From Podarcis cretensis (lineage: Eukaryota): a stretch of DNA of 64,000 nucleotides. Shown here in pieces: positions 3,525 through 20,216 of this stretch. Location of the stretch: contig OX638160.1 in the NCBI GenBank assembly GCA_951804945.1, forward strand, positions 32,736,001-32,800,000. Reading direction: 5' to 3'. The notes under the pieces were generated by a model, which was not told the DNA's origin, did no database searches, and saw only the letters and a list, made by a program, of their open reading frames with translations. Numbering within the stretch: position 1 is the stretch's first letter; every line of letters starts with the position of its first letter. The position numbers were made by a program, and so were the translations under genes.

Positions 3525-4512
3525 CCCCAGGCTTAAACATTTTAAAATGCAGCATTTCTGCCTACAAGGCCTATATATGCAGCTGAGATCTTCCTGTTGC
3601 CACAGCTACAAGAGAATATAATTGTTGTGGTGAGATTATGACATACGTAAACTTTTCCAGAGGGGGCCTTAATTTCATTGGAGTTTGGATCAGCTCAGAA
3701 GTGGCTCAGGTGTCATATTCCATTAGCTACCATCAGGGACTAGAATTCCAGTCCATGGTGGTTTGAGCCTCCTACCCAAAACACTCACCAATGAGAGCTG
3801 GGATGAAGGCACAGGTGTGTTTAAAACAACCCAAGTCAAGCACAGGGCATCAGTCCAAGTCCAGAACATAATCCCAAGGCAAGGACAAGCAACCATCCAA
3901 GGTCAATGCCAAAAGGAATCTAAATAGAGCAGCTAGGTTCAGATTCAAGAAGTCGGGGACCTATATTATGGCCTCCTATACCACATCCTAGTCACAGCTG
4001 CTGGTGCTAAATTTATTTCAGGTATTATTGTTTGTTCTCATGGCGAACCCCAAGTCTCACTGAGACCTCCACAGGTGGTGAGTAGCATTGTCAGAGACTT
4101 CTGACTGAAACAAGAGGGGAAACTGCTGGTGTTTGCTTATACGTCCCGTCATGATGTCTCCTTACATCGCATGTGACACAGAAGCGCCTGGGAGCCCCGT
4201 AAGTTGCATTGGAGGCCCCACGGTGAGGGTGCCAAGCACCTACAACAATTTTTTTGTGGATGCCCAGGTCCCCAGTGCCTGGAATGGAAATCAATGCATT
4301 GAATATGATAAGTATTCACTGCTTTTGTTGCTTTCAATTCACAAATGATATATGATTGATTGCACCCACACCCACACACCCTTTGTGTTGTGTTTCCTTT
4401 GCACTGAAATGAATGCAGTGGAACAACATCTTGACAATGTAACTTATGCAATGAATTATGTAAATTATATAATTCCACGACAGTGAGACAAATAATGTAG
4501 AATTTGGTGGAA

Positions 4513-17252: not shown

Positions 17253-18205
17253 TAGGAATAAGTACCATCCTCCATGTCTTCTAATGGTCACAGTGACCTT
17301 GGCTGGGATGAATAGGGAGCCAAACAACTGGCTGATTAAAAGTATGTGTTCATATCCTTTAAACTTTCTCAAGTTCCCTGGTCTCCTCTCACTCCACTCA
17401 CTCATTTACCTTTTTTACCTACCTCCTCTGACAACTTCTGATGTGAATATTGCACCAGTGATCCAGACTGGTTTAAATTCCTTCCTTGTTTAGATAATTA
17501 GGCAATACAAAAGGTTATCATTCCTGGCTTAGTTTTATTAGATGTCATTCTGAGAATCAAATATCTTGTGCCATTATTCTTACTAATTATTATATTATTA
17601 GAATTTAATCATGACTTTCTACCAAAAAATAAATAAAAATGTTCAAAGCAACTTACAACTTCATAAAATACAGTTGAGATATTTTACATCACAGCTGCCA
17701 TAACTCTTACGTTGCACAAATGCTATTTTGTGGATATGAATCCATTTACTAAATCACTTATTGCAGCTTTTGTGGGTATGAATCCATTTACTAGACTATG
17801 CCTGGACAATACATCAATGAATTTTCAAAAGAGCAGAAATTGCATGGCATGTGCGAAGAGGAAACCTATTAGGGAATAATGTTTTCCTATTAATCTGCGG
17901 TGAAGAGATTTGACCTAAGAATAACTCCCTGTCAAACAAGGAGATGCTACTGTTTACCCTGTGGAGATGTTAACAGATTTTGCACAGATACTTGCTTTGA
18001 AAAAAACTGGAAAGTAAAACTTTTCCAGCTCAGAATATCTAGGATAATTATGAGCTGAATTCAAACCTCTTAGAAGTTTGGGCTCAGACCAGAGAAAGTT
18101 CACATCCTTTCCTTCTGACACTTATCTAGCAGTGCTGTCAGCAGTGATAGAGGTGGAAACTGTGGTCCTCATCAGGCCATGCAGGCAGCATTGTAGGTAT
18201 GAGAA

Positions 18206-18530
18206 CACTGGGGAACAATTTTTTTGTTGCATTGACACCTGCAGCTGTTCTAATCTAATTTCAACGTGCTGATTTCATATCTGAAGTTGGTTTTGTTCTG
18301 TAAGCTCTAGGTTTTTGTTTTTTTTTTTGAAATTCCTGTTTTTCACAATGCAATAATTCAATATTTTATTAAACACATAGCCAAAGTAGTACAATATGAG
18401 TATAAATGTAAGTGGCTTCTATAGCATTGAACATGACATGTATAGCATTGAAAATGACATGTATAGCATTGAAAATGACATGTATATCTATGTACAGTTG
18501 GAGGTATGCAAAAAAATGTATTCCCTTGGG
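18206..18530 (+). mobile_element. Chapaev-like non-autonomous element
   Basis: Starts CACTGGGGAACAATTTTTTT, as at 19372, and shares tgctgatttca(t/a)atctgaa with it. Ends in a degenerate inverted copy (aaaaaaatgtattccc). Confidence 0.55.
18420..18485 (+). repeat. 21-bp minisatellite x3 (tatagcattgaa[c/a]atgacatg)
   Basis: Directly visible tandem copies. Confidence 0.9.
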
Positions 18531-18538
18531 ATGCACAG

Positions 18539-19364
18539 TGTCAGGGGTTCAGGAGCAGAAGCATAGGGAAGAGGGGAGATGGAGAGCGAAGGGGAAGAAT
18601 CCGAGGGCAGCGTAGGAGAAGATGACAGTGGCCCGAGAGATTCCATGAGCCTCTCCAGCGAATCGGAAGATTCACAGAAGGGGGCGCCGGTGGCCAGGGC
18701 AAGGGGGGTCCCAAGGGGGACACCCCAGAAGCAAGGGGCCAGCGGGGACTCCCAGAGCAGCAGTTGGAAATCAGGACCAGCTTCCCCACCAGAGCATAGT
18801 GGGGGGGAAGAGTCACAGGTATCGGGAGTAGCGTCTCCCCCAGCAGGGAGAGGAGAGGAGTCAGGGCTGACCACGCCTCCATCGGAGAGTCAGACAACGG
18901 AGGGGAGGTCAGATCCGGCCAGTATCCCGGAAGAGGGAAGCAGTGACAGAAGTAGTGTAACGGTCAGGAGGAAGGTCACTGGGTTGGCGCGAGAGGCAAG
19001 TTCAAATGTACAGGAGCATGGGACAGCAGAGAATGAGGATTGGGAACCGGGTCCTAAAGCCCGCCGGAGGCAGGGGGAGGAGCTAAGCGACTCAGCGTCA
19101 GAGGAGTCCAGAAAGGGGAATGCCCCAGCGGGCAGGAGGACCCAGAGGAGAAGAGAGCAGCGGAAAAGGTGGAGCAGGGCTAGGATCTTAAACTGGTGTC
19201 AGAGGGGAGGAGATTCAGACGGGACTTCGCCGATCTAGGGTTTAAGATGTAGGGCTGCGCGCTGCGGCTTTGAAATGGAAATTGAACTTCAATAAAGACT
19301 TTTGTACATTACGACAGCCTAGCGTTGGTCCTCTGTGAGCTGGGACCTAGAGGCAGCTCTGACA
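18539..19364 (+). mobile_element. Solo LTR (Gypsy-like), 826 bp, containing a 219-aa ORF
   Basis: TGTCAG...CTGACA termini, perfect 5-bp TSD CACAG (18534-38, 19365-69), AATAAA at 19291-96. Confidence 0.9.
18579..19238 (+). CDS. LTR-embedded ORF: disordered Ser/Glu/Gly-rich protein with Arg-rich C-terminus (putative U3-encoded Pol tail or accessory protein)
   Basis: Uninterrupted 219 codons covering ~80% of the LTR, ending RRTQRRREQRKRWSRARILNWC. Expression from this solo copy is not shown. Confidence 0.5.
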   Translation: MESEGEESEGSVGEDDSGPRDSMSLSSESEDSQKGAPVARARGVPRGTPQKQGASGDSQSSSWKSGPASPPEHSGGEESQVSGVASPPAGRGEESGLTTPPSESQTTEGRSDPASIPEEGSSDRSSVTVRRKVTGLAREASSNVQEHGTAENEDWEPGPKARRRQGEELSDSASEESRKGNAPAGRRTQRRREQRKRWSRARILNWCQRGGDSDGTSPI

Positions 19365-19371
19365 CACAGTA

Positions 19372-20216
19372 TACTGGGGAACAATTTTTTTTTCATTTTC
19401 TTTTGCATGAGATTTTTCAACTGTTCTTATATGTTCTTTCAATGCTGATTTCAAATCTGAAATCGATTTTCGTGTACATGCTATAGTTATCTTTCAATTT
19501 CCAACTTTTGCCGAGGTAAGTGGACACTGACACGTTGATCTACCCTAACCACGTGGTAATTATTGTTATGCAAACTTAATTTTTCTTTATTTTTACAGTT
19601 TTGTAACCTAAATATTTGTATTTTTCAAACTGGACCATGGCTTCTTCAAGTAGACAAAAATGTGTAAACAAGCCTGATGCCTTTTTTAATGCTATTTTTG
19701 TCTGGTCAATACGAAGGGTATCGGCAAGAAAAACCTACATTCTGTCACCTATCCCACTATTCCTTCAGCAATTAGACCTATCCCGTACTCTGAGGAACTC
19801 CCAATTCCAGTTTTTAAGAGGTTTGTCTCTTCTGAAGATGAAGGAAGTAAACATGGTGAGGAGCACAACTGGATCATCTGGATCTCAAAATGGTCAACTT
19901 ATTGCTTGGACAACAGAAAGGCTTTACCAAGTACCTGAATAACAATTGTAGATACCACTAGGAAACAAAAATAGCAGTTACTTGTGTGATCCTTGGGTTC
20001 TCGCCAAACCATGGGAACCCCAAAAGGCATACTCTTGCGTTTTCCTTTTTTCCAGTCTCACAATTGTGACAAACAATATGCGGAACCCATTTCTTATCTT
20101 GGTCGCCCAGGGGAATTTCAAAATAGCTTTTATAGGCACGCCTCACAAACACTGTTATATCGCGTCTTTGACGAGGAAGTGCGTAGCATCCACATACATA
20201 CATAACAAAAGGCATC
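19372..20216 (+). pseudogene. Chapaev(3)-type DNA transposon 5' end with deleted and rearranged transposase
   Basis: Terminus (t)actggggaacaattttt; putative 5'-UTR intron GT 19516...AG 19598; accATGg at 19637. Plus strand encodes MASSSRQKCVNKPDAF, CYFCLVNTKGIGKKNLHSVTYPTIPSAIRPIPYSEELPIPVF and DLKMVNLLLGQQKGFTKY. Minus strand 19965-20216 encodes CGCY...YFEIPLGDQDKKWVPHIVCHNC and PFGVPMVWREPKDH. Confidence 0.85.

Follow-up and report, generated by a model that had tools for sequence, protein, structure and literature searches.

A solo LTR of Podarcis cretensis that probably carries the coding end of a Gypsy chromovirus pol gene

Introduction

A stretch of 64,000 nucleotides from the lizard Podarcis cretensis (contig OX638160.1, positions 32,736,001 to 32,800,000 of the forward strand; hereafter the window, to which all coordinates refer) contains a solo LTR that is largely taken up by a single open reading frame. 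An earlier note, prepared from the sequence alone, had proposed that the U3 region of this LTR is protein-coding and is translated either as an extension of Pol or as an accessory protein. The locus raises the question of whether the frame encodes a protein at all and, if so, to which gene it belongs and from which RNA it is read.

Results

The LTR and its open reading frame

The LTR (18539..19364, plus strand like all features given below) comprises 826 bp, reads TGTCAG...CTGACA with TGTCA and TGACA as its termini, and is flanked on both sides by the 5-bp target-site duplication CACAG (18534..18538 and 19365..19369). It belongs to a young and abundant family of Gypsy chromoviruses, referred to as family A. 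Since the rest of the element is absent from the 64-kb window, the copy was regarded as a solo LTR. The ORF extends from the ATG at 18579 to the TAG at 19238 (18579..19238; P0001), has a length of 660 nt (219 amino acids, 80% of the LTR) and is followed by the motif TTTAAG at 19241 and the polyadenylation signal AATAAA (19291..19296). Its product is rich in Ser (18%), Glu, Gly and Arg, with an acidic start and a basic end. The reading frame is that of LTR base 2; counted from there, an in-frame TAG (18564..18566) is codon 9 and the ATG codon 14. All this agrees with the earlier note, which had described the TG...CA ends, the duplication, the AATAAA, the ORF and its phase, the TAG five codons in front of the ATG, and a Ser/Gly-rich chain with an Arg-rich end. 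The TAG proved to be private to the window copy, as it was found in one out of 94 A-type LTR copies of at least 820 bp. Without it, the coding stretch comprises 232 codons plus stop (18540..19238). Among the 30 best-matching loci, the frame was open from base 2 to codon 233 in 23, and 23 of the 30 loci examined showed an exact 5-bp duplication.

Dinucleotide shuffles of the LTR reached an equal stop-free length in 19 out of 1000 cases (mean 133 codons, p about 0.02). Thus, the length of the ORF is weak evidence when taken alone, and the strong evidence is comparative. Pfam returned no match to the 219-aa ORF at E<=1 and no convincing family for eleven other long frames of the window. In the ESM Atlas, a stored homologue (P0009) gave no usable feature match, and its structure matches all had TM values below 0.35.

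Common squamate repeats and microsatellites were seen at several places between positions 4500 and 64000. The LTR lies within a decayed repeat (19630-19900 and about 18200-18540) with a broken frame (MASSSRQKCVNKPDAF..., ...YPTIPSAIRPIPYSEELP...), which we assume to resemble an old DNA transposon.

The element family

A genome search with the LTR yielded 4087 first-look candidates, a figure that is not a copy number; the best 40 of the 4087 were 99% identical. Some family-A loci turned out to lie at the termini of complete elements, about 6.7 kb long, in which a gag frame that measures 377 codons from stop to stop is accompanied by a pol frame reaching the 3' LTR. By Pfam, the order of the pol domains is protease, reverse transcriptase (RT), RNase H, integrase, SH3 and a chromodomain-like module, as in Ty3/Gypsy elements. 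No env frame was detected in 20 fetched elements, in which all frames of at least 300 codons between the LTRs fell into the gag/pol regions. The gag/pol overlap harbored the heptamer GGGAAAC in 14 of 20 family-A and all 12 family-B elements, and we take this to be a probable -1 frameshift site.

The closest named proteins of the element are from Podarcis. A sister family (B) has an LTR of 759 bp. The elements are still young, with LTR pairs that show down to 0 differences. The same genome harbors a distant clade (C/D) with LTRs of 398-435 bp and an RT that is 65-69% identical, while the RT of a chromodomain-bearing element from fish (P0157) is 52% identical. Judged by its self-priming, its layout and its pairwise identity to fish elements, the element fits the vertebrate Tf1/Sushi (V-clade) chromoviruses. 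The Pfam Chromo profile gave 42 bits with clade C/D and 17 bits (E=0.006-0.007) with families A/B, below the cut-off of 25; at the sequence level the A/B module appears to be a degenerate chromodomain homologue.

Two peculiarities of the family may be mentioned. At three loci (L068, L129, L084) the two LTRs, or LTR and internal part, stem from different subfamilies, suggesting recombinants or rearranged loci; the LTR pair of L068 displays 131 differences in 819 positions and its duplications are unlike. Furthermore, 33 of 40 internal-bearing copies of family B and 14 of 40 of family A were located within 2 Mb of chromosome ends, where 5% were expected, and the crowding was similar at both ends. 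For LTR matches the corresponding values were only 2/40 and 8/40, all figures referring to samples of top matches. Full-length copies may survive better in these regions, or insertion may be targeted to them.

The pol frame continues into the 3' LTR

In full-length copies one frame leads from the protease through the chromodomain-like module into the LTR at base 2 and terminates at LTR base 698. The locus L061, for instance, contains a single frame of 1545 codons ending at LTR base 697. The codon at the junction is split, two of its bases being internal and one belonging to the LTR, and the protein reads GGM-DVRGS across it. Hence, the passage of pol through the polypurine tract into LTR base 2, which the earlier note had suggested to look for, does occur, but among junctions selected at the DNA level 19 of 51 were in frame (see below).

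For family B, whose open copies, like those of clade C/D, came from a protein search that favors open frames, 26 of the 31 top matches lacked a stop across the 1563-codon frame. All 12 fetched elements of this family enter LTR base 2, and 11 of them run for 210 codons. The same junction and tail are present in the UniRef proteins P0002-P0004 of Podarcis muralis, whose tails are 58-62% identical as against 87-95% for RT, RNase H and integrase. In P0005 and P0006 the junction and tail are absent. Searching the whole library with the tail region disclosed only 10 relatives, two of which led to clade C/D. There, LTR pairs were resolved in 14 elements, 11 of which show a frame of 100-109 codons beginning at base 2. 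Of the other three, the first is in frame on entry but shifts within the LTR, the second is already shifted at the junction and the third has a mis-called start. Six fetched loci (of 20) for which no LTR pair was found automatically also run through the same DVRE junction.

The frame is maintained by selection on the protein

A codon model applied to the 232 codons of ten subfamily representatives gave an omega of 0.37 (p=8e-16), as opposed to 1.95 and 1.28 in the other sense frames. The value stayed at 0.37 when the last 18 codons, which overlap the promoter and primer DNA, were omitted, and dropped to 0.24 for the basic patch of the A/B frame. In clade C/D (13 copies) we determined an omega of 0.38, with 1.57 and 1.72 in the other frames and 0.22 for the last 45 codons. 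Omega for this clade is conservative, since the set includes the LTR of L239, which belongs to a neighboring element and whose last codons are shifted. At the ends of the tail omega amounted to 0.22-0.30. The highest values (0.52-0.58) were obtained for its middle, which accepts large in-frame indels. As controls, the integrase yielded 0.10-0.20 and the internal part of the tail 0.28-0.41; the constraint on the LTR-encoded tail (0.37) is weaker than that on the integrase. One antisense frame showed an omega of 0.48. We read this as a shadow, because the sense frame and this antisense frame have their third positions in common and stop columns are more numerous in the antisense one (four vs. 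one).

Private and shared changes were compared in two young subfamilies using 84 DNA-selected copies. Private non-CpG changes exhibited a nonsynonymous to synonymous ratio of 103:38, where 2.5-3.2 is expected under neutrality, while shared ones showed 19:30 (p=2.7e-5). Nonsense changes were private in four cases and shared in none. Between subfamilies, the indels inside the ORF (-3, -63, +3) were multiples of three in 3/3 cases, but those behind the stop (-1) in 0/3; within families, none of 15 indels kept the frame. The contrast between private and shared changes together with the indel phases indicates that selection acts in replicating lineages and ceases after insertion. The comparison of codons thus showed that the LTR frame has been under protein-level purifying selection in two distant clades. 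On the points that the earlier note had named as refuting, a dN/dS well below 1 was obtained in the ORF frame (0.37-0.38, other sense frames 1.3-2.0), and the indels between subfamilies were in phase. Its reservation that a GA-rich composition alone might explain the openness did not hold in view of the frame-specific omega, the indels and the junction phase in two clades.

Shifted junctions

Evidence against a coding tail came from copies that had been selected at the DNA level by likeness of their chromodomain region. Out of 30 copies examined in each family, 10 of 25 scorable junctions of family A and 9 of 26 of family B were in frame (19/51 altogether), and five and three copies, respectively, read to the normal stop. 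The out-of-frame junctions deviate by one or two G within the runs of G in front of the LTR; a dozen combinations were seen, the commonest of which terminates 24 codons into the LTR. Shifted G-runs occurred in about 60% of the copies (L031-L060, L081-L110, L143-L172). A first look at one copy (L029) had suggested that Pol ends at this position, 24 codons into the LTR, but with more copies it became clear that the G-runs occur in many states, scattered among the copies, of which this is one.

The G-runs at the junction were changed in 7/19 and 4/19 cases, compared with 0/18 and 1/17 for similar runs in the RT; the rows at -39 and -33, whose overlapping flanks had led to wrong scores, were left out. 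On trees, the shift states required 10 changes in family A (9.5 when shuffled, 411 of 500 shuffles as low) and 6 in family B (7.7 when shuffled, 65 of 500 as low), the trees being poorly resolved and containing shifted groups of two or three copies. Unclustered shifts fit recurrent slippage in daughter copies or assembly errors rather than a tail-less lineage, and we read the G-run differences accordingly as one or the other. If the shifts are real, the in-frame state has been kept in several families despite a high rate of loss, which argues that the tail is needed.

Transcription start and self-priming

The site adjacent to the 5' LTR matched a sequence within the LTR over 11 nt in 17 out of 18 elements and over 10 nt in one, which was equalled in at most 2 of 200 shuffles. 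Both sides of the match covary, between as well as within families. In the window the LTR side of this putative self-primer is located at 19217..19227; its sequence is complementary to the bases that directly follow the 5' LTR. By the known mechanism, such a match presumably marks the 5' end of the RNA. We infer that transcription starts at LTR base 679 (19217), which would be the U3/R border, 19 nt in front of the ORF stop. A U3 of 678 nt would then be coding in its entirety, and the promoter of a 5' or solo LTR would not be expected to drive transcription of the ORF within that LTR. In seven classes of LTRs the U3 lengths were 678, 612, 681, 639, 279, 285 and 306 nt, all of them multiples of three. 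Self-priming has been given as a mark of the Tf1/Sushi group and denied to plant chromovirus clades other than Tcn1 (PMC6317226).

The earlier note had taken TTTAAG for a TATA-like site. This could not be upheld: the motif lies 24 nt downstream of the probable start and is missing in family B. A better candidate is CTTAAA (19187..19192), which is situated 30 nt upstream of the putative start, inside codons for I-L-N.

Structure and motifs of the tail

Behind the start of the chromodomain, 69-118 residues were counted in three short-tailed relatives (two of them from fish) and 242-444 in the lizard families. In an AlphaFold model of the clade-C end, SH3 and chromodomain were folded, the C/D chromodomain resembling those of HP1/CBX, while residues 161-349 remained under a pLDDT of 50; the LTR-encoded tail is predicted to be disordered. 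The three cage positions of the chromodomain, which were assigned by pattern, are occupied by Y/W/Y in three short-tailed relatives, mostly by W alone in C/D, and by none of these residues in A/B; the Pfam score declines in parallel. Both fish proteins (P0157, P0158) have short tails after an intact chromodomain, including the sequence PRGRPP, which we take to be AT-hook-like. P0157 apparently continues for some codons beyond a G-rich tract and could be a small-scale forerunner of the extension.

Inside the LTR, the only feature common to both clades is an Arg-rich stretch followed by (I/L)L-x-W. A global alignment (A1) left the C-terminal motifs of A/B and C/D unaligned owing to the unequal lengths of the tails, and a profile test took its place. 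The profile of the C/D end scored the window stretch 19122..19196 above 500 of 500 shuffles. Among seven tails it detected the motif in six, where 0-4 of 500 shuffles scored equally well, and missed it in P0003 (86/500). The C/D form of the motif also terminates a UniRef model of a phospholipid-transporting ATPase of Podarcis muralis (P0155), where it may be an exon derived from a solo LTR or an artefact of gene prediction.

A second motif, FxGF, resides between the chromodomain and the polypurine tract, outside the LTR and the window (L061:350-1681:-, L227:5842-6600:+, L232:828-1553:-). It was present in 18/18 long-tailed sequences, which are kin and not independent cases, but in 0/3 short-tailed ones, and in 56 out of 57 DNA-selected copies; A/B have one copy of it, C/D often two. 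FxGF is preceded by a predicted helix with aromatics and a linker of 8-9 residues that is acidic or Ser/Thr-containing (Ser/Thr-rich in family A). In the clade-C model these are a helix at 154-162 and an acidic linker of nine residues. According to PMC9987994, a TIM consists of a helix, an acidic linker of 8-16 residues and FxGF within a disordered region, and binds LEDGF and HRP2. The arrangement in the lizard elements corresponds to this TIM/IBM definition at the level of sequence and is a candidate motif only. A complex prediction with the FxGF peptide of family A (41 aa) and the IBD region of Podarcis LEDGF, both submitted without alignments, scored 0.01, a value that speaks neither in favor of binding nor against it.

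Discussion

Proposed origin of the frame and rival explanations

We consider it probable (roughly 0.7) that the ORF represents the final 232 codons of a Gypsy chromovirus pol gene, forming a likely disordered integrase tail that would aid delivery to the nucleus and chromatin. In full-length copies the pol frame crosses the polypurine tract, fills U3 and ends at LTR base 698, and this part of the frame is kept by purifying selection on the protein in two distant clades. Genomic RNA would extend from base 679 of the 5' LTR to beyond the AATAAA of the 3' LTR; with such a start and end, the tail could be read from the 3' LTR copy only, as part of Gag-Pol, probably by way of a -1 frameshift at GGGAAAC. 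Reverse transcription would place a copy of U3 at the 5' end, and recombination between the LTRs would leave a solo LTR. A solo LTR formed in this way would carry the ORF as a promoter-less passenger that decays neutrally, and the TAG of the window copy would be such an event. Taken jointly, we hold these four steps with great confidence. The odds are about even for a fifth step, in which the Arg-rich end would serve as a predicted signal for nuclear import or for binding of nucleosomes or DNA, and in which the tail, together with the upstream helix, acidic linker and FxGF, would replace a chromodomain that has lost its aromatic cage. A more far-reaching version is less likely than not. The whole U3 may have become the coding end of the integrase, the reading of methyl-lysine being replaced by a TIM that docks to LEDGF/HRP2 and by an Arg-rich/(I/L)LxW end for nuclear entry or nucleosomes.

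The evidence for read-through and selection would equally fit a tail that is made with Pol but is cleaved off by the protease, or that serves as an acidic/basic scaffold or as an RNA chaperone within the particle, with no role in nuclear entry or target choice. The mixture of acidic stretches with an Arg-rich end would suit such a function. However, the tail follows the chromodomain, the place at which chromoviruses carry their targeting modules (PMC3059260); the cage residues are lost in the long-tailed clades, and the upstream part of the tail harbors a motif of the chromatin-reader type. We therefore regard a cleaved or particle-internal tail as improbable.

A still smaller chance was given to selection on the RNA, by which a frame open to about 55 nt of the poly(A) signal would shorten the 3' untranslated part and guard the genomic RNA against decay, while the amino acids themselves would be of little importance. 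In every family examined the stop is indeed situated about 20 nt inside R, and the indel-tolerant middle of the tail with its relaxed omega is what one would expect of mere openness. This does not explain the low omega at both ends, nor the conservation of the Arg-rich/(I/L)LxW motif between the clades despite many synonymous changes. Moreover, if Pol is made by frameshifting, most ribosomes would end at the gag stop anyway.

The accessory protein, the second possibility raised in the earlier note, would be a separate gene beginning with the ATG at 18579 and expressed from a spliced RNA or from solo LTRs. Nine of 10 subfamily representatives of A/B possess this ATG, in a purine-rich context, and the sequence GTAAGT just behind the 5' LTR of A/B resembles a splice donor. 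Yet another residue takes the place of the Met in P0002, P0003, P0007 and one representative, and C/D lacks a counterpart of this Met, so that it appears to be an internal Met of the Pol tail that is not conserved across families. The 13 codons upstream of it and the junction are in frame with Pol, and the probable RNA start is at the 3' end of the ORF. As a dedicated splice donor, GTAAGT was dismissed, since this sequence forms the site of self-priming and is GCAATC in clade C/D. We consequently attach very little probability to an accessory gene; it is the extension of Pol that is supported by read-through, omega and indels. That a G/A-rich LTR poor in stops carries a functionless frame by accident, as the shuffles might suggest, is scarcely credible given the frame-specific omega, the contrast of private and shared changes, the in-frame indels and the identical junction phase in two distant clades, provided that the underlying alignments are correct.

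Significance

With Pol extending into U3, one stretch of DNA would serve as promoter, self-primer and coding end of the integrase, under protein-level selection, in a young clade of vertebrate retrotransposons. Many solo LTRs carry an open frame of 210-232 codons, which gene finders report as uncharacterised proteins (P0009, P0011, P0017). Such frames are also appended to models of host genes (P0155) and could be raw material for new exons. If the LEDGF/HRP2 reading were true, a retrotransposon would mimic a cellular LEDGF ligand for target choice, as lentiviral integrases use the LEDGF tether, and the genome would have been seeded with thousands of ready-made open frames. The motifs of the tail, a TIM-like FxGF and an Arg-rich end, make the idea of target choice testable with short peptides.

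Comparison with known systems

MMTV sag and lentiviral nef are separate genes that overlap U3 and possess their own start and RNA. They had been named in the earlier note as precedents and resemble the lizard frame in that coding sequence overlaps U3; unlike them, the lizard frame forms the terminal part of pol and lacks a conserved ATG. A more fitting precedent is provided by the plant CRM chromoviruses discussed below.

For the candidate motif upstream of the LTR, cellular ligands of LEDGF/p75 and HRP2 offer the closest likeness, as they share a helix with aromatics, a linker and FxGF (PMC9987994, PMC11740969, bioRxiv 10.1101/624023). The TIM/IBM is described for cellular proteins, and lentiviral integrases hijack the same domain, whereas the lizard motif is a candidate by its sequence and its family-A linker is Ser/Thr-rich instead of acidic.

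The Tf1/Sushi V-clade (Sushi-ichi, Amn-ichi/ni/san) shares with the lizard element the order PR-RT-RH-IN with SH3 and chromodomain at the end of the integrase, the lack of env, the self-priming site, an LTR start of the form TGTYANR and a 5-bp duplication (PMC6317226, PMC2774666, PMC4131045, PMC3601003). The Sushi U3 is described as T-rich, whereas that of the lizard element is a purine-rich coding sequence. The three short-tailed relatives, two of them from fish, keep the Y/W/Y cage, but the lizard families have lost two or three of its residues.

The literature searched, with Repbase/Dfam, subscription papers and supplements outside its scope, contained no account of a Pol-coding U3 or of an FxGF motif in vertebrate Gypsy elements. 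While no vertebrate precedent was found there, a pol frame entering the 3' LTR is already known from plants. In group A of the CRM elements (Beetle, Bingo) the pol frame reaches into the 3' LTR, where the CR motif is encoded (PMC3059260, PMC3605345). These elements resemble the lizard element as Gypsy chromoviruses whose pol passes through the polypurine tract and terminates within the 3' LTR, so that the integrase's C-terminus is LTR-encoded, and whose canonical chromodomain is replaced or altered. The lizard element differs in its vertebrate host, in a self-priming site instead of a tRNA site, in keeping a chromodomain-like module upstream of the polypurine tract, and in an extension that takes up the entire U3, with 100-232 codons or 75-85% of the LTR. 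With its lizard host, chromodomain homologue and self-priming, it is CRM-like in layout and not a member of CRM. In plant CRM the LTR-encoded end of the integrase is tied to target choice, and the lizard element may be the parallel vertebrate case of a change in the tether to chromatin.
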